The notes under the pieces were generated by a model. That model was not told where the DNA came from and did no database searches. It worked only from the letters and a program-made list of their open reading frames with translations. From Geodia barretti (taxonomy: Eukaryota): DNA of 15,632 nt. Made by a program: the position numbers and the translations under genes. Of the stretch, positions 1-15,632 are shown in pieces. The first letter of the stretch is position 1. Every line of letters begins with the position of its first letter. The stretch covers positions 64,001-79,632 of the forward strand of contig CASHTH010000349.1 in the NCBI GenBank assembly GCA_030341885.1, given 5' to 3'.

Positions 1-272
1 TAACCACATTACTGGATCTATTTATCGCAGCAACTGACTTGGCAATTAGCTACATTAAACTGCATTTGGGGGCAACTTCTTTGCCATTTTCCGCATAATT
101 GTTGGCAGTCTGTAGCAAACTGCTAAATTTTTATGCAAAAACTTATTGTTGCCAAAATTAATAGGCAATCCAATCCCTACGTACTTTGTACCTATTTGTT
201 GAGTCATTTCTCGCATGGTTGGCTGGTGTAGCGTAGTGTTATTCTCCCTACATACAGAGAGAGTAATTGGAG

Positions 273-3200
273 ATGAAGAGTGTCCTCTCCTCCTGCAAAC
301 TGGAGCAACACAACTCCTTCTCAGACAAAGACAGCTACCCCCAACACACACCCTCACTTCCACCTCCCCCGATCTCTCCCCCACCGAATTCACCCACTCC
401 CCACTCTCCTCCACCTCCTCACCAAGCCACACACCCTCGGCTCTATCCGTCCAACGCAGCTGGCTCTCGATGCACCACGACCTCATCTCCTCCCTCTCGC
501 AGTTCACCTCTGCACTCCAGCGACACGGAACGAGACCGGAGACGGGAACGGGTCTCGGACCAGGATTCTGGAACAGAGTCTGGTCCAGCAGAACCAGGTG
601 GTGGACATGCTGCAGAAGATGGTAGTGTCGCTGGAGAACGAAAACGAGAGGGTGCGAGGGAACACTGTCAGACTGGAGCGCAGAGTCCAGGCCCTCAAGA
701 TGTGGAAAATGAGAGCTCGTCTCGCCGAAGAACGATTAAAAGAAATGGCAGAAAGTTCGGGTATTCTGGGCTCTAGTAAAGATGGGATTGTTTCTTTTTC
801 TGCCCTCGCTAGTTTTGAAAAGTTGCTGGTCGAGAAAGACGAGAAGATTGCATCGCTACAGTCGAGGGTGGAGGGAGAAGAGGAGGAGAAGGAAGGGAGC
901 GAGACCATGTCTGTGAATCTCCGATCAAAGCTGGCAGCAGAGAGAGTGAGAGTATTGGAGCTGGAGGAAGAGCTGCTGTCCTCCCGCGAAGAGTCCAGGA
1001 AAGCTCTCAGGGAGTTGCGTGACGCCCAGTCTGACATGGTGAGGAGGGAGTCGGAGGTCCACTACCTGCGGCACGAGGTGGAGACTGTGAGGAGAGTGGG
1101 CACCCAGCAACGAGAGGTGGTCATGGGTCTGAGGGCCGCACTCTTCGATAGAGATGCTCAGATCGCTTCCCTCACACGAGAGAGAACCACTGCAGAGAGG
1201 GGGAGACGAACGCCTGCCCCTGTTCGTCAACGCCAGTCCATATTTGATCTTCTTCTGGGTAGAGAGGTGTTCAATATTGAGCTGGCTCGTCGATCAGAGG
1301 CCGAAAACCTCGGTTTTGGCGTCAGTCGTTTCGAAATGCCGATATCGTCTCGGAGTAGCAGCCTCATCGTGACGGGAGTCAAGGAAGGGAGCCAGGCACA
1401 GGGTCTTCTGTTGCCCGGGAGACGAGATCCTGGAGGTGAATGGGTTCAACTGCCGCAGTGTGGCGTCCAGAGGAAAGCGGTGGAGATATTGGAGGCAGCT
1501 AAAGGTAGTCTGAAGATTGTGGCGGCCAGAGAGAATGGCCCGGCAGACATTGTCGGGAGACTTCGCAGCACTCCAGTCATCCCTGACAGGTCCCACTCTA
1601 CTCTGTGGACCACTGCAAATGACGCCTCGTTTTCTCCTATCAGTCCCCACCTCCCCTCCAATGACGTCGCTCTGTCCTCGTCGCCACGTCACTACAAACT
1701 GACACTCTCCTCCCCCGCCTCCTCCCCTCCCCACACACTCCCACTGGCTTCACAGATAAGACCACAGCCCATCGGTCAGGGAAAACTTATCGAGCCCGTC
1801 TCCCCAGAACACCTCGAGAACCCCACTTCCAACACCGGCAGAGCAGCTAGTAGCAAGAGTAATTCGGTGGACGAGGGGTTAAGACTGAGACAAGAAGAGC
1901 TGGAGGAGGAAGTAGACGCAGCTCACGGGGAAATTGATAATCTGAAAACAGAGAACCAGCTTAGTGCGGCTCAGAACTCTGACCTCCAGCAGAAGCTGAA
2001 AACCAGCGAGAGAGAAATGGCCGACCTCCGGAGAGAGGTTGAAGAGGTGCAGGAACTTCTGACGGGACTGAGGGAGAAGTTGGAGAGAGAGAAAGAGAGA
2101 GTCGGTCGTCTGGAACACCACAACGGTTCTCTACAGGAGAAATTCTCAGAGGCAAATGCAGAGAGGGATTATGAAAAGCAGAGAGTGTCACACGCACAGG
2201 AAGAGATTGTGATACTGAAACTGGAGTTTGAGAGGGAAAAGAGCGAACTTGCGACAGAATTGTCGACAGTTCGGTCGCGAAACGAGCTGTTGGAGGACGA
2301 GGTAAAGTCCCAGTTGGCTAAGGCAGAGGCGGCCCAGAGCCACGCAAGCCAGCGAGAGGCACTGAGAGAAACGGAACAAAAGGAGGGAGAGAAGTTAGTG
2401 CAACAGCTTACGAATGAACTGCAGGAACTTCGAGAGAGCTCAGCGAAAGAAGTGTCCTCCCTACAACTAGAGGTTGATCAACTCCGGGGCCAGCTAAGCA
2501 CCATGATACCTCAGGTTGAAGCCGCGGGGAAGAAGGAGACGGAAATGAAACACGAGCTGCGTCACCTAAGACAGGTCGCCAGCGAGAGCAACAAACAACT
2601 GACGGAGTTGGACAAGGCCCACCGGAGTCTCAAGGAGAAAATGGCGGGCATAAGAGAGCAAGCCGAGTCTAAAACCCTCGAGTGTGAGTCACTTACTCTG
2701 GGGTTAAAGAGAGCAGAGGGGAAGCTGCAGGCAAACAAGAACGTCTCCTGTCGCCAGCAGGAAGAGATCGATAACCTCCGTCGCAAAAACAACACACTAC
2801 TCGTCGAGCGAGTCAAGGCGGACGAGGGACGTAGCAAGACCGAACTAGCCCTCAATAACTGTCGCACAGAGCTGGCCTCACTGAGGGACCAGCTGGAAAA
2901 GCAGTCGGAGGAGAAGGACCTGTTTTCAGAGCTGGAGACCCTAGTGGCTGAGAACACTGCCCTCCAACAGCAGTGGGATAGTTCTCAGGGGCAGGCAGAG
3001 ACAGAGAGACTGTGCCAACAGCTGGAGGGTGTGCAGGAACAGCTAGATGAAGCCAGGGACTCTCTGCAGACAACTAGTGGGGAGAGAGATGAACTCAAAA
3101 CTGAATTGTCTCTCCAGCAGTCCAAGGTGGAGGAATTGAAGAAGAGTTTAGCTGCGAGTGAAGCAGCTCTGGGAGTGGCCGAGGGAGGGAAGAAGAAGAG

Positions 3201-5124
3201 CGAAGATCTCGTGTCCTCAATGACGTTTGTACACGAGCAGGACGCGGGAAAGACCAGAGAGCTGGAGGAGACAGTCGCGACAGCTCAGAGAGGGCTGGGG
3301 GAGATACGACTCGAGGCCACTAGAGTTCAGGAGGAAATGGGGCGTGAACTGCAGCAGCTGGGTGCCGAGTGTGCTGGACTGAGGCAGCGAGTGAGGGGGC
3401 TTTCTGACCAGCTGGACAGTGAGAGAGAAGGTCGTGCTGGCGACGTGAAGAGTCTGAGAGAATCTCTCCAGACCAGCGAGCGGAGTGTGTGTCACCTGCA
3501 GTCAGAGCTTCAGGCGAGGGAGTCCGCCAACAGCATCAACCAGGCAACCATTGCCCAGCTCCAGACAACCTGCGAGCAGACGGAGCAAGAGAAGGCAAAA
3601 CTGGAGGGAAGCTTGGAGGAAGTCCTGCAACAGAACCGCCAACTCACCGAGGAGGTGGAGAAGCTTCGGACATCTGTTCGGCAGCTGGAAACAGACAACG
3701 CAGCTCTGGCGGGAGAGAAACAGAGTCTTGTCGAGAGATGTGCCGAAGTAAAATCAAGCCTTGCACAGAGCAGTGGTAAGATTGAATCACTCACTGTAAG
3801 ATTAGAGACGGCACTCACAGAGCTCGGCCAGACCCAGGAGAGGCTTGAGAACAAACACAGAGAGGGTCAAGAGGCAAAGAAAAGTCTAAATGAGCTAGTG
3901 AACAAGTACCGGGAGAACGAGAAGAGGTGTGAAGGTGCAGAGTCCAGAGTGCAGGAGGTCACGCTGACCCTCCACACGAGAGAAGAGGAGGTGTCGAGAC
4001 TCAAAACTCAGCTGGAGGTGTCAGAGAGTGCGCAGACCCAGTTACAGAGGTCGGTAGTCTTGCTGCAGTCAACGACCGCCTCCCAGGAGAAGAAGATAAA
4101 AGTCCTGGAGAGAGAGAGAACTAATCTGGCGTCAGCCGTGGAGCAGCTGATGGCTTCGCAGGCAATGCTGAAAGAAGTTGTGTACTCGTTGGAGAGCGAA
4201 AAGGCTCAGAATGAGGGAGCAAAGAACAGAGAGATTGAGTCCCTAACGCATCAACTGGAGGAGAAGGTGGAGGCAGAGAGAGAGCATTTGGGGAAGATTC
4301 AGCAGTTGGAGAGAAAGTGGAGGGAGTCGCAGAGAACGACAGAGGAACTGCTGGCTGCGCAGGAGGCTCTGCGGGTGTCTCTGACGTCTCTGGGAGACGA
4401 GAGGGAGGGAGAGGTGGCGCGACTGAGGGGGCAGCTGGTGTCCCTGGAGAGCAGTCTTGTGGCCGCACAACATGAGGCCTCGGAGGCCAACACAGCGGAG
4501 GAGACTCTGAGGGAAGAGTTCTCGAAGACTCTCGAGGAATCGGAGCTGGGGTCAGCAAAGTGCTCACAACTTCAGGAAGAGTTGGAGGGTCTGCGGGAAG
4601 AAATGGCGGAGCGACGAGAAACAATAGCGAGACTTGCCGAACTATACGAGAAGGTAGGAGTGCTTGAGAAAAGCCAGAAGGAGAGAAGCGATAAGATTGT
4701 GGCAGCAGAGAGCCAACTGGAAGCCACGTCCAGAGAGTTGCAAGTGGTGAAGACAGAGAACGCGGCTCTGTTGGAGAGAGTTGGGGAAGTGGCTTCAGTC
4801 AGTCTGTCTCTGGCAGAAACCACGGCTCAGCTGGAGAAGGTGAGGGGGGAACTGGCGACAGAGGTCAAGTCACGGCGGGAGGCGATGGAGGAGAAGGAAC
4901 AGCTGCTGGGGGTCCTGAGGAGACTGGAGGTGGAGAAACATACTGTGAGCGTGGCACCGGCCCCCGAGGCCAGCTCAGAGTGGCAGGAGGCCGACCGGGA
5001 GAAGCTGCTCTCTCTGACCAGAGAGAAGGAGGAGGAGGCGGCCAGACTGAGGGAATATGTGTCCAAACTGCTCTCGGCTGTGGTTGAGAAAGCTCCGTTT
5101 CTTCTGGAGAAACTGTCAGATTGA
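273..5124 (+). CDS. Large coiled-coil protein with N-terminal PDZ domain and C-terminal Rab11-FIP-like Rab-binding helix (uncharacterised; one uninterrupted coding exon in window)
   Basis: ORF 280-5124 runs 1,614 codons without a stop; the track 'M' at 280 is GTG. Composition is heptad-rich K/E/L/Q/R across ~1,200 residues, like a myosin tail or golgin. A PDZ signature lies at ~1261-1536: ENLGFGVS..SLIVTGVKEGSQAQGLLLPG[DEILEVNGFNCRSVASRGK]AVEILEAAKGSLKIVAAR; the bracketed part reads only in the +1 frame. The C-terminus LREYVSKLLSAVVEKAPFLLEKL (5041-5121) fits the RBD-FIP consensus (..YIDNLLVRVMEETPNIL..). Stop is TGA at 5122-5124. The first in-frame ATG is at 607. ATGs at 273 (+2 frame, S/P-rich MKSVLSS..) and 215 (+3 frame) lie upstream, so the true start is unresolved; it could be an indel or an upstream exon using an acceptor near 502. 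Confidence 0.7.
1261..1536 (+). other. PDZ domain-coding segment; residues 1418-1477 are out of frame relative to the long ORF (compensating +1/-1 indels at GGG 1417-1419 and AAA 1474-1476)
   Basis: In the main frame this stretch translates GRRDPGGEWVQLPQCGVQRK. Shifting +1 gives the canonical PDZ core GDEILEVNGFNCRSVASRGK. The flanks GLGF-like ENLGFGVS / SLIVTGVKEGSQAQGLLLPG and AVEILEAAKGSLKIVAAREN are in the main frame. Confidence 0.6.
5041..5121 (+). other. C-terminal Rab11-FIP-type Rab-binding (RBD-FIP-like) amphipathic helix
   Basis: ARLREYVSKLLSAVVEKAPFLLEKLSD* conserves the Y-[IV]-x-x-LL-x-x-V-[MV]-E-x-x-P-x-[IL]-L spacing of the class I/II Rab11-FIP C-termini (e.g. ELEDYIDNLLVRVMEETPNILR). 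Confidence 0.5.
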
Positions 5125-5276
5125 GGCTCACAATTATATACCACAATCATCATGTGTAACAGCACCACTCTGTTCTAGTGCTATTGCGATGTCCAGTTTC
5201 TTTTTCACAAAGTTTTATCACAATAATCAGAGAAAAAACAATTTTGCTAGTGTATCTAGTGTTCTGGTTGCTATGG

Positions 5277-6557
5277 TCACTGGTCCACTGATATGGCTGT
5301 GGCATCAGGCAGATAGCCTTCCCAAACCCGAATCAGCTGCCAGTCAGAGAGGAAGAGAGGAGAGAGAGAGAGAGAAGGGAGAAGAAGGAAGAAGTGAGAT
5401 CACATCATCATGAGAAGTGCAATTATTAGAGGGGCAAAAAGACGTGACTGTATAAATGATTCTCACTGACCTCTTGTTGCATACTCATAAGTGACTCCAG
5501 ATAGCGGATGATCTTTTCCTTGAACTCTGCAGCTCTCTCACTCTGTCACACATAGACAAGTGAATTAATCATCTCCATAACAACCTGGAGCTTACCTCGA
5601 ACCTCGTGACCTCCGTCTTGAGCGTCTTCGATGCGTCTTCAAATGCCTTTTGACTCTCCTCCACCTTCTTCTCCCACTGCAGGGGTCAGAGCTCAGTGGT
5701 ATCCCAGCAACCAGACCACACCCACCTCCTCTATCTCTGTCTTGACGGCCTGCAGTTTCTCCATCTTCCCAGAGGCAGTCAGTTTCTGCTCCTGTTCTCT
5801 CTTCTTGCTGAGAGTTTGTTGGCAGGTCTGCCACACGTGGTACGCCCTGACTCTCATGTCAAAAGCAGCCTGTACACAAGTGACAGCATCAAACGGGTTA
5901 AAAAAGAGAACATAAAAGAAAGGGTGGGCAATTGAAATAATGGAGCTAGTTTTCATTCATTGGCTCACTCTGATGGCTCCCAGGAGTGAGATGTAGTCTT
6001 TCACAGTCTCCCCAAACGTGAACAAGTCTTGTTTTATCTGCAGCAAGACAAACTCCTTCTGAACAGACATCTTGGCAGGACATCGAAAGTCAAATCCCTC
6101 TTTTATTCAGGTACATGAGGTTCAGTGTGTCCAGTGTTACGTAATGTTACGTAATGTTGGGTCACCTGTTCACTGTGAAGGCTCTCGACTTTCTCCTGCA
6201 CCTCAGAGAGACGAGAGAGAGCTCGAGACACTGTGTTATTCTCCTCAACGTTTCCTAAATGACGTAGCAGAGAATGAGATACAATCTACACTGCTGTAAT
6301 TGACAGGGGCCTTACCCAGAGTTGCAACACTCTTGACGAAGTTACCTGTCGTCGTGCAGAGCTCTGTTCAGAGTGAGAGAGGAAAAGAGAGAAATGAAGG
6401 AGGAGGAAGGGAGGGTAAATAGACAAGAGCAGGAGCTGGATTATAGCGTCATACTGACCTTTGCGACTGTAGATCATGCCCTCTATTGCCTGGTGGAGTT
6501 TCTTCAGATGAGCGTCTAGAGCCTCGTAGTTCTGCTGATGTTCGTCAAACCACTGCC

Positions 6558-6589
<32 letters not shown>

Positions 6590-8156
6590 CAACCAGAGTT
6601 AGACCCGGTGTATAGAGGAACATACGCTGTCTGTTTCACTCTTCTTGCTGGCAATCTTGGAGATTGACTGTCCGACGTTCTTCACCAACCTCATGAACCC
6701 AGCTCCACTTAGGGCCGTTGTCTCTGTGGCTTTAGGCAGCTGAGGGAAAACAGAGAGACCGTACCTCCACACATCTCGTCAGAGGTTAGCTCCGCCCACC
6801 TCTGCTGGGTTCTCGAGGAAGTCGATGAAGTCAGCGTCTTTTCTGAGGACCGGGTGTTTGGCTACTCTGTTGAGGTAGCGCTGGAGAGCCGCCTGCCGTC
6901 TCTCCAGAAACATCGCATTGCCCTCTTCACTCTTTGAGAACTTGACTGTCGTCATCCCTGGGTGGCAGGAATCACGTCAAATGCAAAAAATTCTCCACCT
7001 CAATGGAGAAAACGCTGTGTGGGTTTAAAGCTGTCAGTGAATTTTTTCTCTTAAAGATTTTGTAAACAGGCTTTCTACAATTTGCTAATTTTAAACCAAA
7101 TAGTTATAATGCTTATATTTCATTAAAAGTTTGCATGCGGCACAGTGCGAAGGGGTAATGTGATATAATATTGTGAAACAATAGCCAAACTCTCTCTCTC
7201 CCCGGATCAGTTGGCTAACCTCTAACACTCTTCTCTGGAGCTGGAGGCACGATGCGACCTTTTGGGAGGTGGGTCTCAGCCATCTTGTTGTGCAGTCGGA
7301 GGAAATCGCTGAACCTCCGGCGAACGCTGGCCTCGGGTGACTTGAATGCTGGCACGGTTGTCTTGGTAGTGATGCAGTAGACAATGTAGGCCCCCATTCC
7401 GTCTCCCACCTTCTCGGGGTCAGAGACCGTGATCTCCAGTTCATACTGCTGTAAATCCTCTGCCTCTTCTTCCTGAACATTGAGTGTGAAACATTCACCG
7501 GTTGTGCTACAGCGTATGTGCAGTGCTACACATCCATTGACAGTCTGCACAATGTACGCCAGACTCTGTGATGTGGTGGTACAGGCACTGTAGAGGATTT
7601 CCTTGCACCCGAAACACCGACACACAACACTAGAGTGGATGCTGGTGTGTAATTCTACAGGTCTCAGTACACAAGGCCTTACTAGACAATCAAACAACAC
7701 AGATCAGTCCATTATGGTACCAAAACACACCCTCACCCTTCCTTAATGGGTTTCTGAATGCACACTTATACATGTGTATATTTCTTCCAATGTGGAGCCA
7801 AGCTACAGTTTCTGGTACCTGGGAGCTCACGTGAGGCGGAGGAGGCGGCTCGTCGTCCTCAAAGAGGTCCAGAGTCTTCTGCGGAGGTGTCTGGGTGACC
7901 GGCTTTGCCACAGGGGCGGGCGGCTCATCCTCCTCTACCGCATGCGCTTCCAGAGTGGGAGGCGGAGCGGCGGAGACGGGTGCTGGTTCCTGCGGTTCAG
8001 GTTCGGGCTCCACCGTAGGGGGCTCGTCTTCTTCCTTGTCCTGCACCTCCTCCTCTTCCTTTCCTCTGGCTCTGCTGTCATGGTGGCCGCGGGTTCCTCG
8101 ACCTTCTCCCTTGCTTCCTCGTCCTGGAAGTCCATCGGTGGAGGCTCGTCCGCCAT
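5277..8156 (-). CDS. snx2: Sorting nexin, SNX1/SNX2 family (PX + BAR, retromer SNX-BAR); 12 coding exons
   Basis: Exons on the minus strand, 5'->3': 7819-8156, 7220-7472, 6800-6957, 6626-6739, 6459-6552, 6316-6363, 6166-6254, 5969-6037, 5726-5869, 5596-5676, 5471-5542, 5277-5336 (stop TGA at 5277-5279). All junctions are GT-AG and phases are consistent. The PX domain is ELEITVSDPEKVGDGMGAYIVY..VRRRFSDFLRLHNKMAETHLPKGRIVPPAPEKS. BAR/C-terminal matches include LSGAGFMRLVKN, WFDEHQQNYEALDAHLKKLH, AAFDMRVRAYHVWQTCQQTLSKKREQEQKL, WEKKVEESQKAFEDASKTLKTEVTRFE, and LIRVWEGYLPDATAIS* against SNX1/2 ...YWEAFLPEAKAI[SA]*. The N-terminus MADEPPPMDFQDEE and DLFEDDEPPPPP resembles SNX2. Exon 1 needs a 1-nt correction at the T run 8060-8062 to join the ATG frame (8156) to the conserved frame. 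The exon 2 acceptor (7472) and its weak donor GTTAGC (7219-7218) are placed by homology; paralogue assignment is tentative. Confidence 0.85.
5346..5397. repeat. GA-rich purine tract (CT-rich polypyrimidine tract on minus strand) feeding the acceptor of the last snx exon (5337-5338)
   Basis: agagaggaagagaggagagagagagagagaagggagaagaaggaagaag. Confidence 0.8.
6135..6158. repeat. Tandem 10-bp repeat TGTTACGTAA x2.4 giving two perfect TTACGTAA palindromes (6137-6144, 6147-6154) in snx intron 7, 8-30 nt from the exon 7 donor
   Basis: tgttacgtaatgttacgtaatgtt. TTACGTAA is the palindromic PAR-bZIP / D-box-type site. Confidence 0.8.
6562..6587. repeat. (AG)13 microsatellite; on the minus strand a (CT)13 polypyrimidine tract immediately 5' of the snx exon 5 acceptor (6553-6554)
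   Basis: agagagagagagagagagagagagag. Confidence 0.95.
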
Positions 8157-8259
8157 GCTACACGGTCACTGAACCCTTGAGTGTCTACAGCTTCTCGATT
8201 TCCAATCTGCTCACTCGGTACGCAGGGGAGAGCTCGAGTTAGCTATCTCAGCTCAGCTT

Positions 8260-8365
8260 TCTTTCGCCGCAGCCGATCACGTGCTACGTGGGTCCCGGGG
8301 GGCGGGGCTGCGCGGCGCCCGTTTAAATAGCCACGCCCCTTTGAGGAACGCGCGTGCGCAAACAC
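8260..8365 (-). promoter_or_regulatory. CpG-rich putative core promoter / 5' flank of the snx gene (overlaps the 3' end of cope)
   Basis: Dense CpG: cgccgcagccgatcacgtgctacgtgggtcccggggggcggggctgcgcggcgcccgtttaaatagccacgcccc...cgcgcgtgcgc. GC box GGGGCGGGG at ~8299-8307. E-box CACGTG at 8278-8283. TATTTAAA (minus orientation) at 8322-8329. Located 100-200 bp upstream of the snx ATG at 8156. Confidence 0.45.
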
Positions 8366-8431
8366 GGTGAAACTTCTATAATTATATACACGTACACGGA
8401 GGGAAAGTAATACAAAGAACGAGTCATGATT

Positions 8432-9858
8432 CTAGCTGGCGGCAGCGCATAGCTGGTCAAACAGCGCCTCCTGTGAAGGAAAGAGACAGAGTATTAGACA
8501 AGTAGAGAAGATCATTATTCCCACCTTCTCCAAGTATTCCTTCACAAACAGGTGTTCAGGGTGACCGTCTTTGAGCTGGGAGAGATACCTGTACGCCACC
8601 TGCACACACATCATTAATTTGATGGTGATTGAATCAGGTTCAACAGTAAATGCAAGTCAAGTGCACAAACAATTCAATGAAGCCCAGGGCAACAGCAGTG
8701 CCGGCAGGTGGAGCTGTGTGACATACCTCATGAGGCTTGTGAAGGTACTGAGATACTGCCACTAGGTTCACCAGTGTCTCTGGATTGTTGTTATCCTATA
8801 TATATATAAGAGCCAAAGTGAGAGTTCTTAACAAGGAACCGACTCTCTTTCTCACCTTGGAGAGGGCCTCAAGCAGAAGAGACTCGGCATCTTCGTACTT
8901 GGCCTGGTGGATGTAGGAGACAGCCTGGCCATTCAGGAGCAGAGGAGTGGGTGTGGTCTTGTCAGCCATCTCCTGGAATATGTAGTAGGAGTCCTGGTAT
9001 TTCTCCCCTCCGACCCCCAGCCCCACCCAGGCCTGGGAGAGCTGGGTGAGAGTGGAATCGTCGTCTTTCTCTTGCATCCCACGAACCTCCTTCCTACACA
9101 CAGACAGTGGAACAATTAACATTTGTAAAATGCAACCAGATCTAAGATAGAGCATAAAAATTTTTTGCTTCCATTCAAAATGTGCATGATTTAATGCAGT
9201 ACACACTTGGCAAGGTCGACTCTGTGCATAGCCAGATAGAGCTGGACTCTCATGGCTGCCCTGAGGGAAAGAGAGACAGAGAGAGAGAGTTGAAAAAGAG
9301 AGAGGAGAGATGTCACACCCACCCCTCCAGAGATTCGGCCTGGTTGAGGCAGCGGAGGGCGGAGTCAAACTTCTGTTCGTAGTAGAAGATGGAGGCTGCC
9401 ATCAGGAGGAAGGTGTCGTTGTCTGCGTCCACTCCGGCATTGATCTTAGTCTCCAGCTCCTTCAGCAGAGCCTCTCTGAACACCAATGGAAGCATAGATA
9501 TTACGGAAGATCCTACAATCATATTCTCACCGTTTCCCTCGGCTGTGGAGATACTGGGCCAGCAGCTTCACTGCCTGCAGCTCAGAGGCAGACGACGACT
9601 TGACTTCGTCAATGACGACGGCGTACTTCCTCTGAGCGATGTATGCTCTGTACATCAGGACGTCGCGTTCCACCCCCAGGGCAGCCGTGGGGGGCTTTAT
9701 TTAGAGAAACACACGTGAAGTCTTTAGTTTTGAGCGGCGGGACGTGTGGTTTAGAGACCTACCCTTATCTTCTGCGCCTCCGTGATGCAGTGCTGGTAGT
9801 TGCCTAGGTAGAATGCCGTACGCACCTCAAACAAAACGTCAACGTCAGAACTCGCCAT
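8432..9858 (-). CDS. cope: Coatomer subunit epsilon (COPE); 8 coding exons
   Basis: Exons on the minus strand: 9763-9858, 9531-9694, 9323-9475, 9207-9260, 8856-9093, 8727-8795, 8525-8599, 8432-8470 (stop TAG at 8432-8434), totalling 888 nt = 295 aa. Matches to human COPE include [151 protein letters not shown] and [19 protein letters not shown]. Confidence 0.9.
9264..9310. repeat. GA-rich purine tract (minus-strand polypyrimidine tract) upstream of cope exon 4 acceptor (9261-9262)
   Basis: agggaaagagagacagagagagagagttgaaaaagagagaggagaga. Confidence 0.75.
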
Positions 9859-9980
9859 TTTCTTTGTTCAAAATTCCACTCCGTGACAATTCGTTAGTTT
9901 AGAACATTACAAACAGCAGCGACTCCTTGCTTGCAGGTTAGGCTGAGCTCTCCTAACCTTCGTGTTGTGGTCTGGGTAAG
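9859..9980. promoter_or_regulatory. Head-to-head intergenic region between cope (ATG 9858, -) and slc22a18 (ATG 9981, +): putative bidirectional promoter / overlapping 5'UTRs
   Basis: Only 122 bp separate the two divergent start codons. The region is not CpG-rich, so the true TSSs may lie inside the neighbouring gene bodies. Confidence 0.4.
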
Positions 9981-11959
9981 ATGCAACGCTCGGCCAACAG
10001 CCTGGGGAGGGAGGAGAGAGATGAGGCAACTAGAAAAAGCTCTGATCTTCGCCGGCGCATGTCTATAGTCATGTACACAGTCATTTTCCTCTACGCTGCC
10101 GCATTCTGGATCCAGACTGGAGTGTTACCAGTGAGTACAAACAACAGACCCCACACCTTCCCTCCACCGCCTCAGTCCCCTGCAGTTCCTCTCCAAGAAG
10201 CTGGGGGACAGACCCTGTAATCTTTGGCTATATGGAGACAGTGTTTGCAGTTGCTATGCTCCTCGGAGGACCTCTGTTTGGTCGCTTTGGAGACATCTTT
10301 GGAGCCAGAGCTGCTCTGCTGCTGGCCTTCCTGTCCTGCCTCTTCACCTACCTCATCCTCTCCTTTGCCACAGGACTCCCGGCTCTGTTCTTCTCACGCA
10401 TCTTTGCCTTCATGATGCACGCAATGCATGGTACAGCCCTCCCACTTTCCCACATTGACACTATTGCACAATTAGTTTTCACTCTGAAATTGGATGAACA
10501 ATCTGGACAGGGGCCCAGATGGTAATGACTGATGTATCTGGAGCTAAAGACAGGGCCGACGCTCTTGGTAAACTGGGTGTGGCTTATGGAGTCGGAATGG
10601 TGGTCGGACCACCAGTTGGAGGTCTGTGATAATCACTAGGGGCTCCCCCTGATGTAATCCTCAACTGCTCAGGGTATGTGACTGTATACTTCAGTGAGCA
10701 ATCGGCGGCAGGTGTTGCAGCTGCTCTGTGTGTGGTTTCCATGGCAATAGTTGTCATGTTTGTACCTCAGTCAACCAAGGACCCATCTCACCTCTCCTCC
10801 AGCAGAGATCCCTACAGTGAGACTGAATTGAGAATATTGCAGCTGTCTGTGAAGTTTTAGTGGGGTTTTAGCAAAAGATTTACCTGTCAGTTCACATTTG
10901 TGTGTTAAAATGGTGTAGCAGCCAGTGATCTGTATGTATGTGTGCTGTAGACTCTGGAGGAGTGGTGAATGTGAAAGCCATTCTGTCCCTCCTCTCCATA
11001 CCTGCCGTGGCCTACGTCATTGGCCTCAAAACGGTGATGGGTGTTCCTGCCGGAGTCTTTCAGGCCATGTTCACCGTCGTTAATATAGAGAGATTGGAGT
11101 TAACGCCAGAAACCAACGGACAGCTTCTGAGCTATATTGGATTTGTTACCATGGTATGTAGTCTCAAGTTGAGTGCAAACACTCTGGCAAACCTTCAATG
11201 ATAATGTATGTGATTGTCCATGGAAATAGACTTGAGAGTTGTCTCACGAAATAATTCTGAAGTACCTTCATTTCCTCAGATAATGCAGGGGTTTGTTGTG
11301 GGGTATATTGGAAGAAGAGTTAGCGACAAAACTACTCTCATTGGTTCAGTTGTAATTGTGGCTCTCTCTTACCTCGTTCTGGTGAGTGGGTGTGGCTTCC
11401 GGGAAAGGGGTTGAGCTTGGTGTGAGTGTCCCCGTTCTGTTCCAGATGGTGACGTCGACACTCTTTCAGCTGTGTCTCATTCTCATTCCAATGATAATGG
11501 GAGGGGCTCTCCTCAATACACTCACCAGCAGTGTTATCACAAAGGTGATCAACTTGATTATGATGTTTCTTACTTTTCATGTTTCGAGCGATCCCTATAA
11601 TTATCCCCCCTTCATTGACTATAGTACAGACTAATTGAGAGAGTGACTAGAAACCTATTTTTTGGGGGAGATTTATGCAGTACTAATATTATAGCAGTAG
11701 CCACATTGCATGGTGGAGATGTGTGAATGTTGTTTCCACTGATTCACACACCTCACAGGTGGTCCCCGATACTGCAACAGGGACCAGCCTCGGTCTGAGC
11801 ATGGCCACACATTCCCTCATACGAACTGTGTCTCCTACTCTTGGAGGCTACATCTACCAGTGGCTGGGCTACCCCGGCTTCGGAGCTCTCGGATTCACTA
11901 CTGGCTCTCTCATGGCAGCTGTACTTATGCTCAGAGGGGGAATCCCCGGAATTAATTAG
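9981..11959 (+). CDS. slc22a18: SLC22A18-like major-facilitator (MFS) transporter; 8 coding exons
   Basis: Exons: 9981(alt. ATG 10059)-10130, 10186-10430, 10511-10621, 10673-10816, 10951-11153, 11280-11381, 11446-11544, 11759-11959 (stop TAG at 11957-11959). Matches to human SLC22A18 include FLSKKLG, IFGYMETVFAVAMLLGGPLFGRFGDIFGARAAL, AQMVMTDVSGAKDRADALGKLGVAYGVGMVVGPPVGG, VNVKAILSLLSIPAV..LSYIGFVTM, IMQGFVVGYIG, and VVPDTATGTSLGLSMATHSLIRTVSPTLGGYIYQWLGYPGFG. Exon 2 carries an apparent +1 insertion in the G5 run 10203-10207 (see findings). Intron 1 is only 55 nt. Confidence 0.8.
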
Positions 11960-12404
11960 CAATTTTCATCAACATCACAATGTATAATGAAGTGCAAACC
12001 CTCGGCACACTCCATAGAAATGTGGAACCCATATATACACAAGTGTGGCACCACCACAATTGATGGTCTTGACCATGCATCAAAAAGAACAGCATGTTAT
12101 GCACCATTTCCATGGATTATTATCAATAGAAATGGGCAGCCCTACAATATCTGTTTGAGGCCCAAAAAATATATAAGGTTGAAAAATTGCCAACCTTTCA
12201 TCTCTCTATTTTCGTATTACCGGTGGCTTGTTTAGTGCAAAAAAAAATTTGCATGCGCGCCGAGGGTTAATAAAAAAATCTGCCACTTTGCTCTTTTCCT
12301 ACACCCACAATCATGTAATTTCACATTTTTATGATGACTTCCTTGTTATAAGAGAATCCACACCTATAAATTAAGCCACTAGGCTCCAGTGTACCAATAA
12401 AAAG

Positions 12405-14312
<1,908 letters not shown>

Positions 14313-14421
14313 TCTAGCCCGAACCTTCTCTATTTAGTGCCCAGTAAAGATCACGTGCGCTGCTTTTGCGCGTGCAAAAAGCCCATTCTTCTCTGGTCTG
14401 GTGCGATGAGAAGAAGCGAAG
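14313..14421. promoter_or_regulatory. Bidirectional promoter region between galt (ATG 14312, -) and the rprd1-like gene (ATG 14422, +)
   Basis: 109 bp separate the divergent ATGs. It contains E-box GATCACGTGC (14349-14358) and the CG-rich stretch gcgctgcttttgcgcgtgc. Confidence 0.5.
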
Positions 14422-15632
14422 ATGTCGTCTTTCTCTGTGGCCACTCTGCAGGAAAAGATGAGTCGACTGTCCGCCTCTCAGGAGAGCATCGAGACACTCT
14501 CGCTGTGGATTATCCACCACAAAGCCTTCGCCAAGACGTCTGTCGCAGTCTGGGCTACAAGTTTCACCAGTGGTGAGTTCTCTCACACGAAAACCCACGT
14601 AGAACGTGCCTCTGAACGCGACAAATGCTCAGCTTTGGTAGCTTCGGTAGCTTCGCTAGAACGTTTTGGCACCTGTTTCTAATTATTTCCCACCTCGATC
14701 GAGCATTGAGGGCTGCCTTCGTATTGTTCTGTGTAAAGACCTTTGGAGCCCTGCCTGCTCAGCTGCCCTGCCTGCTCAATGGCAGCACACACCTTCTTGA
14801 TAACAGTGTCATGGGTCCCGCCCTGAGCAACTCTGCTGCCTTGTGTGTTACCATGTTCTGCAGCTGATGCTGACCATCGGTTGGTGCTGCTGTACCTGGC
14901 AAACGACATCCTCCAAAACAGCCGCAGGAAGAGTGCCGACATGTTTGGGGAGTTGTTCCGTGATCCTCTGCGGCAAGTCGTGCCCCACATCTGGTGAGTC
15001 ATTGATTCACAAGACCACCAGTGTACAGAGAAACCCCTGCACAAGGGGTCCACTGAAATACCCTTCATTCTGAGGTGTTCCTTTTTCAGAACCAAGTGTC
15101 TTTTATAGAGAGGTGTCCTTATTGGATGTTTTACTGAAGTCCACCCACTGTGTGTGTGTGTGTGTGTGTGTGTGTGATCAGTGGGCAGAAGATCCAGAGC
15201 TCAGTGGAGAGGATGCTCAGAATATGGCGGGAGAGAAAGGTCTACGACAAGGCCTTTGTGAAACACTTGGACCAGCTACTGTGTGGTAGCCAGTCGGAAG
15301 AAGAAGAAGGTATCTCTCTCTTTTCCAACCTGGTTTGAGAGATGATGCTTTATTCTTGTTCCTCAGAAGTTGCTGAGACAGCAGTGAGCGTGACCACGCC
15401 TCCTCCAGAGCCAATGCCTGATTTCAAGGTTTGATGGTCGTATTAGTTAACAACTCTTCTATTGTCACTACATTCTCCCCACCCATTGTACTGTGTCACT
15501 GTAGCTGTCTCTGTTGGAGGATGCAGTGCGGGAGCTGAGTAAGTTCCAGGGAGAAATGAGAGTCAAAGAATCCAGTGTTGACAGTCTGCCAATGGATGTG
15601 TGGGATTCCTCCAGTCTCAGTCTTCTCAAAGG
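14422..15632 (+). CDS. rprd1b: CID-domain protein of the RPRD1 (regulation of nuclear pre-mRNA domain-containing 1, CREPT/p15RS) family; 5' part, continues beyond window
   Basis: Exons: 14422-14572, 14864-14993, 15182-15309, 15367-15428, 15505-15632+ (open at window end). Matches to RPRD1 include MSSFSVATLQEKMSRLSASQESIETLSLWIIHH (RPRD1B: MSSFSESALEKKLSELSNSQQSVQTLSLWIIHH), LLYLANDILQNSRRK (..FLYLANDVIQNSKRK) and SVERMLRIWRERKVY. Donors are GTGAGT and GTATCT. Paralogue (1a/1b) assignment is tentative. Confidence 0.75.
15149..15176. repeat. (TG)14 microsatellite abutting the 3' splice site of rprd1-like exon 3
   Basis: ctgtgtgtgtgtgtgtgtgtgtgtgtgtgATCAG|TGGGCAG; the acceptor AG is at 15180-15181, 4 nt after the repeat. 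Confidence 0.95.

Follow-up and report, generated by a model that had tools for sequence, protein, structure and literature searches.

The question raised by this locus of the sponge Geodia barretti is whether a conserved protein domain has been disabled by real mutations, or whether the deposited sequence misrepresents an intact gene. As written, the window (the whole stretch of 15,632 nt which was analysed) contains an open reading frame (ORF) of 1,614 codons on the forward strand (280–5124), which reads ...GLLLPGRRDPGGEWVQLPQCGVQRKAVEILE... where its +1 frame reads ...PGDEILEVNGFNCRSVASRGK...; the +1 frame around 1420–1468 is a canonical PDZ core (PGDEILEVNGFNCRS...). The original prediction saw here a genuine PDZ domain disrupted by a pair of 1-nt indels of opposite sign, with errors of assembly or sequencing on the one hand and a recent inactivating lesion on the other as the alternatives. 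This much has held, since the core in the +1 frame passes the Pfam threshold after repair, aligns in register –1 and agrees with the orthologues. Three breaks were found (–1 at about 532, +1 at 1414–1420 and –1 at 1457–1468), which we infer to be, with high probability, residual indel errors of the draft assembly; the pattern of frame breaks is best classed as not being a real biological feature.

The PDZ region is part of a large terminal coding exon, the features of which are collected in Table 1. An acceptor-like sequence (...CCCTACATACAG) ends at position 257, and similarity to two related loci, L001 and L002, starts exactly after its AG; a polypyrimidine tract and an AG are present at the exon start in both of these as well. 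Judged from these similarities, the exon starts at about 258, and the upstream exons, including those for most of the RA domain, lie outside the window; in the orthologue P0004, part of the RA domain is encoded upstream. The protein of the exon is 72% identical over 1,537 amino acids to P0003, the protein of the closest relative, whose gene is a single uninterrupted ORF of 1,635 codons on an ENA contig (L002/L003). The PDZ fold probably extends over about 1264–1533. At the C-terminus, the Rab11-binding domain (RBD-FIP, PF09457) was matched at ORF residues 1573–1610 with 28.4 bits (gathering score 23.3); orthologues gave 26–33 bits for this domain, and the best matches of the C-terminus among solved structures were RBD chains of Rab11-FIP3 (E about 2e-3). 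The orthologue family has the architecture RA domain, coiled coil, PDZ domain, coiled coil of about 1,100 amino acids and RBD-FIP. This family, which is widely conserved, could be delineated here and is apparently unnamed.

Table 1. Location of the gene features and frame breaks in the G. barretti window.
Feature	Position	Strand	Basis
Large terminal coding exon of the RA/coiled-coil/PDZ/long coiled-coil/RBD-FIP protein gene	258..5124	+	start of similarity, acceptor
Spurious 5' part of the 1,614-codon ORF (frame 1; the real frame is frame 2)	280..531	+	alignments with P0003 and L001
One base missing, uncompensated	530..534	+	nucleotide alignment, wobble phase, frame-2 translation
PDZ domain, extent of Pfam match PF00595	1297..1521	+	profile match after repair, orthologue alignment
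Extra base (+1), best fit A1420	1414..1420	+	nucleotide alignment, position scan
Out-of-register segment, as written RRDPGGEWVQLPQCG(V)	1420..1468	+	register, third positions, wobble-phase jumps
Missing base (–1)	1457..1468	+	8 nt from AGT to CAG AGG AAA, compared with 9 in L001 and L002
C-terminal Rab11-binding domain (RBD-FIP), PF09457	4996..5109	+	Pfam and PDB matches

Relatives were obtained by exhaustive HMMER search, with the PDZ domain and linker of the orthologue P0002 as seed; the family thus obtained consists of single-PDZ proteins with lengths of about 1,450–1,950 amino acids. In all 24 orthologues examined, a single frame encodes PGDE[IL]LE[VI]N..C[RQ] with a nearly invariant Q..A behind it, and likewise the carboxylate-binding loop LGF/LGL together with GDE[IL]LE[VI]N (24 of 24). 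The as-written window is the sole outlier for the PDZ core in this set, none of the orthologues sharing its scrambled residues. The junction in the N-terminal part, too, is read in one frame among the 24, including P0003 and P0151; the latter, which reads like P0003, is encoded on another contig, either of the same taxon or of a sister taxon. The locus in the window is syntenic with the single-ORF gene of the closest relative and represents the ancestral copy; a retro-copy or a duplicate pseudogene was ruled out on this ground.

The as-written reading destroys the Pfam match of the PDZ domain: 141 amino acids around it matched no Pfam family, even at E ≤ 1. The PF00595 profile (gathering score 23.2) was matched with 27.6 bits after the repair which follows from the original prediction and with 24.4 bits after an orthologue-guided repair. 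The gene is thus a member of the PDZ and RBD-FIP family in its repaired form only; as written it fails the PDZ profile. At the nucleotide level, the flanks of the PDZ domain align with L001 in register 0 (64–65% identity), and 1417–1476 aligns only in register –1 (65% vs. 33%), a result which is far beyond chance. The 38-nt block between the two PDZ indels is 95% identical to L002. The shifted stretch differs from it at 3 positions, all of which are synonymous third-position changes if read in the canonical frame, but fall on first positions of the as-written codons. In the shifted frame the segment yields DEILEVNGFNCRS, identical to P0003, followed by 2–3 loop residues, compared with about 1 of 15 residues matching in the as-written frame.

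For each of the two PDZ indels every possible position was scanned. The window has CCC GGG A GAC GAG where L002 has CCC GGG GAC GAG and L001 has GCT GGG GAT GAG; it then continues GAC GAG ATC CTG GAG GTG AAT GGG TTC AAC TGC CGC AGT, compared with GAC GAG ATT CTG GAG GTC AAT GGG TTC AAC TGC CGC AGC in L002. The deposited sequence at the site of the extra base is CCCGGGAGAC. Removal of A1420 gave the best fit (40 of 45 matches to L002), and deletion of any base of 1414–1420 results in the same protein, LLLPGDEILEVNG. The GGG run at 1417–1419, where the frame had been thought to shift, lies inside this interval, and the best-fitting base is its right-hand neighbour. For the missing base, placement within 1457–1468 gave 36–37 of 48 matches to L002, and placement at the AAA run 1474–1476, where the original prediction had the frame rejoined, gave 32–33 of 48, i.e., 4–5 nt matches fewer. 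The frame is instead restored before the Gln codon 1468–1470, 6–19 nt upstream of the AAA run. The latter is disfavoured because QRKAVE, identical to P0003, is situated in the frame of the long ORF already, and a repair there would lose the Gln which is nearly invariant among the orthologues. The exact position of the missing base inside 1457–1468 (deposited as GTGTGGCGTCC, cited also as AGTGTGGCGTCCAG) is ambiguous, the CC run 1467–1468 being one candidate. The two indels are consequently 37–54 nt apart and not 57, and 13–16 residues are scrambled rather than 20. That both should be situated in homopolymers is no more than a possibility: the best fit, A1420, lies between GGG and GAC, and the CCC and GGG runs (1414–1419) and the CC run are equally or nearly equally parsimonious sites.

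A third break, which had been overlooked, is found near 532, where the window reads GGA ACG -AG ACC and L002 reads GGA ACA GAG ACG; a sequence one base longer would be GGAACGGAGACC or similar. In frame 2, identity to P0003 is 72% at window positions 242–553 and identity to L001 is 62% at 257–532, and the residues which precede the coiled coil in both L001 and P0003 follow the pattern ERV[IV]G[DE]EECPL.LQTG...SALQ.HGT. Due to this 1-nt deletion, codons 280–531 of the 1,614-codon ORF are a wrong-frame translation. The long frame, which the pair of indels was supposed to have kept open, is thus partly spurious, and translation which enters from the upstream exons would, in the as-written sequence, terminate at TAG 623–625. 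The notion that the PDZ domain was lost with the rest of the protein preserved is untenable as a functional state, given that this break is uncompensated. With three 1-nt repairs, 1,622 codons without a stop are obtained. Other gap pairs of a length not divisible by three in the global nucleotide alignment, near 864–868, 1090–1103, 1225–1229, 2878–2887, 3771–3781 and 4970–4975, were considered as further compensated frameshifts and dismissed as alignment noise, the protein alignment being collinear at each of them. A candidate extra base at 10207, on the border of an MFS exon the left side of which is without coding periodicity, was left out of the count.

Which frame has been under selection can be judged from the substitutions. 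Mismatches between the window and L003 in ungapped blocks are strongly 3-periodic. Counted along L003, the phase stays the same in all five blocks; counted along the window, the wobble phase jumps at 531, 1419 and 1458 only. This wobble-phase test took the place of a symmetric, HSP-based comparison of the window with L003 for frame breaks, in which the known breaks went undetected. When lineage-specific changes were polarised with L001 as outgroup, those of G. barretti numbered 113/89/264 at first, second and third codon positions, and of the codon changes 129 were synonymous and 47 non-synonymous; the sister lineage had 119/75/218 and a ratio of synonymous to non-synonymous changes of 111:49. 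In the 5' part of the window, which holds the breaks, the ratio was 38:11. The frame breaks are present relative to every relative, and the canonical frame is the selected one; purifying selection on it is undiminished in the G. barretti lineage, essentially up to the present. No relaxed constraint is apparent, and the lesions are either unreal or extremely recent.

Low-coverage PacBio CLR consensus leaves 1-nt indels, some of which are missed by one pass of Pilon. A consensus or polishing error probably caused the 1-nt indels in this way, and the true gene would then most likely encode an intact protein with RA, coiled-coil, PDZ, long coiled-coil and Rab11-binding domains, in which the PDZ core would read ...GLLLPGDEILEVNGFNCRS(2–3 aa)QRKAVEILEAAKGSLKIVAARE. 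The break at 532 bears on this: it would sever the conserved upstream part with the RA domain from the rest and is uncompensated, and therefore the as-written sequence implies a null gene; this conflicts with the selection signal and thus counts for an artefact. Several observations count in the other direction. Polishing with about 340x Illumina reads would be expected to remove most simple indels, the break sites include no long homopolymer, and over about 8.6 kb of syntenic flank, several exons included, the wobble-phase test detected nothing comparable. Three breaks within 935 nt, with the pair of opposite sign within about 50 nt, argue besides against uniformly random errors; due to this clustering a local cause must be assumed, such as a haplotype mosaic, a local misalignment or a dip in coverage. 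If a diploid genome was collapsed in assembly, nearby allelic variants could lead to local misalignment and hence to paired or clustered indels. Apparent frameshifts in collapsed PacBio assemblies have been traced to nearby allelic variants and misaligned reads (PMC8445201).

Two of these observations speak also for indels which are real and very recent, in which case the gene would just have lost its function, or a null or hypomorphic allele would have been the one assembled. The deposited sequence survived the Illumina polishing, the neighbouring syntenic exons are free of other frame breaks, the substitution analysis is blind to events younger than a few dozen substitutions, and animal genes are known to contain compensatory frameshift pairs (PMC8935012). 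The PDZ core would then have been scrambled by the compensated +1/–1 pair and the N-terminal part cut off by the –1 near 532. This reading is unlikely, however: three independent 1-nt indels would have to be accepted in a gene whose repaired frame has acquired no stop, which exhibits no excess of non-synonymous change, which is conserved in 24 orthologues and of which this locus is the syntenic, ancestral copy. An intermediate with a single indel would truncate the protein at a frame-2 stop near 1510; true compensated pairs avoid conserved regions (PMC8935012), whereas this one strikes the most conserved motif of the PDZ domain; and loss of the PDZ domain only is not compatible with the uncompensated break at 532. 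That G. barretti, or one haplotype of it, should very recently have disabled a metazoan-conserved RA/PDZ/coiled-coil/Rab11-binding protein is, as a specific claim, slightly less probable still. Correct DNA with a protein restored by programmed +1 and then –1 ribosomal frameshifting, or by insertional and deletional RNA editing, is extremely improbable. Nothing specific speaks for it beyond the canonical peptide being perfectly kept in the shifted frame; it presupposes recoding at three sites (532, about 1420 and about 1460), which none of the 24 orthologues requires, inspection of 1457–1468 revealed no slippery heptamer of the type X XXY YYZ, and no Rfam family was matched anywhere in the window. 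Recoding of this kind is, to our knowledge, not known from sponge nuclear genes. Equally improbable is a merely coincidental likeness to a PDZ domain in the +1 frame, or an ancient degeneration of the domain. The PDZ domain of this family is admittedly divergent, several intact orthologues reaching just 19–25 bits against the gathering score of 23.2; the scrambled residues, however, are absent from the orthologues, the register shift is seen directly in the nucleotides, and the wobble phase tracks the canonical frame, so that this reading is already refuted by comparison. Recoding and coincidence jointly carry scarcely any of the probability.

Residual assembly error, the preferred explanation, is in accordance with what is known of the source. 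The G. barretti assembly was produced from PacBio RSII/Sequel CLR reads of 19x mean and 14x median coverage with Flye 2.4.2 (--meta), followed by one round of Pilon with the Illumina reads; its BUSCO value is 71.5%, and its size of 144.7 Mb, compared with an estimated 127 Mb, possibly reflects uncollapsed heterozygous regions (PMC10542158). Sequence from another source was sought in several ways. The databases contain a single near-identical protein, P0001 (NCBI, hypothetical protein GBAR_LOCUS2443, partial [Geodia barretti]), the sequence of which is found letter for letter within the as-written ORF, scrambled residues included; it is therefore the gene model of the same assembly and provides no independent evidence. 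A search with an alignment of the repaired and the as-written readings returned P0001 only, and neither P0001 nor the as-written ORF starting at ATG 607 had a record on exact-protein look-up. Two metagenome scans with 32–35-mers adjoining the indels yielded 0 matches. When the PDZ region alone was searched against a word index of proteins, no match was obtained, not even P0001; this index evidently misses close relatives, as P0003, at 72% identity, was found by exhaustive HMMER search only.

Residual indels of long-read assemblies resemble the present case in that 1-nt indels break the ORFs of conserved genes whose orthologues are intact, and in the combination of PacBio CLR reads of low coverage with limited polishing by short reads. 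Clustered or paired indels have been ascribed to misaligned reads near allelic variants (PMC8445201; PMC12007338). The window differs in that its sites are not long homopolymers and the remainder looks clean, and its case is deduced from the assembly and from relatives rather than seen in reads. The compensated frameshift pairs described as pCFMs (PMC8935012) are similar in consisting of two opposite 1-nt indels, a few dozen nt apart, which replace a short stretch of peptide. True pCFMs have a preference for genes and regions of weak conservation (PMC8935012), whereas the pair in the window replaces the family-invariant GDE[IL]LEVNG core of the PDZ domain; the abandoned frame is without divergence after the event, a third, uncompensated frameshift is present, and the pair is shared by no relative among the 24 orthologues, so that the likeness is formal only.

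For the public gene model this means that GBAR_LOCUS2443 is truncated, has a garbled PDZ domain and is without the conserved N-terminal part, due to probable assembly indels. Users of the G. barretti draft should expect artefactual frameshifts even after Pilon polishing; silent compensated pairs of indels leave ORFs open and so escape quality checks which are based on ORFs. Should the lesions be real after all, a conserved scaffold protein of the trafficking type would have been lost very recently in a sponge. This would be an instance of early gene death, or of the loss of a domain by compensated frameshift in a highly conserved fold, in which the pair rewrites the PDZ core and 1,200 downstream codons stay open.

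The two domains of the repaired protein can be compared with known ones. After repair, the PDZ domain agrees with PF00595 in its GLGF-type loop (ENLGFGV), its GDEILEVNG strand pair and the segment of its alpha-B helix (QRKAVEILE), in contrast to the as-written window, which is without any match to the model. The C-terminus resembles class II Rab11-FIP proteins (Rab11-FIP3/4) in that an RBD-FIP is situated at the end of a coiled coil, and binding of Rab11 may be predicted from this similarity; unlike class II, the family of the window is without EF-hands and possesses an RA domain, a PDZ domain and a coiled coil of about 1,100 amino acids.

The gene at window 258-5124 (+) belongs to a conserved protein family, the members of which share the same architecture, consisting, from the N- to the C-terminus, of an RA domain, a coiled coil, a single PDZ domain, a coiled coil of about 1,100 amino acids and a Rab11-binding RBD-FIP domain; the proteins are about 1,450-1,950 amino acids long. 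Twenty-four members were examined, some of them encoded on contigs as long as 9 Mb. The generic "chromosome segregation ATPase" was the only name provided by the source for any of them, and no counterpart of the family was found among characterised named families.

The public gene model GBAR_LOCUS2443 (P0001), which was derived from the same G. barretti assembly, begins at an internal ATG at 607 and ends after ...DEGRSKTE, at about nt 2844. Since the open reading frame extends beyond this end up to 5124, with orthologues being collinear all the way, the model is lacking both ends of the protein: a conserved part at the N-terminus and, at the C-terminus, 760 residues that include the RBD-FIP domain.

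A frame break of its own was present in L001, the Logan contig (ERR13605529) which carries the more distant orthologue, at about 3730-3760, with an in-frame TAG at 3733-3735. The net length difference of L001 amounted to 8 nt and fell into a stretch of divergent sequence; both the window and the contig of the closest relative (L002) are continuous there. The 487 codons downstream of the break continue in a different frame.

Downstream of the gene, window 5125-13757 was closely collinear with positions 14909-24908 of the relative's contig L003, and the non-coding DNA could be aligned as well. The neighbouring genes include those for a PX-domain protein, coatomer epsilon and an MFS transporter (see table), each of which is composed of several exons. 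Nucleotide alignment to L003 showed one extra base in the window at 10207, on the left-hand boundary of the MFS transporter exon. This base is probably intronic rather than a fourth coding frame break, since coding periodicity was absent from the flank to its left.

Farther downstream, the start of a 155-aa open reading frame (MSSFSVATLQEKMSRLSASQESIETLSLWIIHHK...) resembles by eye the CID/RPR domain of RPRD1-type proteins; a Pfam match at E ≤ 0.01 was not obtained for this frame. Simple repeats are included in the table.

Coordinates of the gene model, neighbouring coding features and simple repeats in the window
Feature	Position	Strand	Basis or remark
Gene model GBAR_LOCUS2443 (P0001)	607-2844		labelled "partial"
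Imperfect AG-rich array	5346-5399		just 3' of the gene's stop codon
Simple repeat (AG)15	6558-6587		
PX-domain ORF	7215-7700	minus	PF00787, 31.8 bits
Coatomer epsilon	8796-9368	minus	PF04733, 113 bits
MFS transporter exon	10148-10441	plus	PF07690, 33.8 bits
155-aa ORF	14109-14576	plus	CID/RPR-like start, judged by eye
Simple repeat (TG)14	15149-15176
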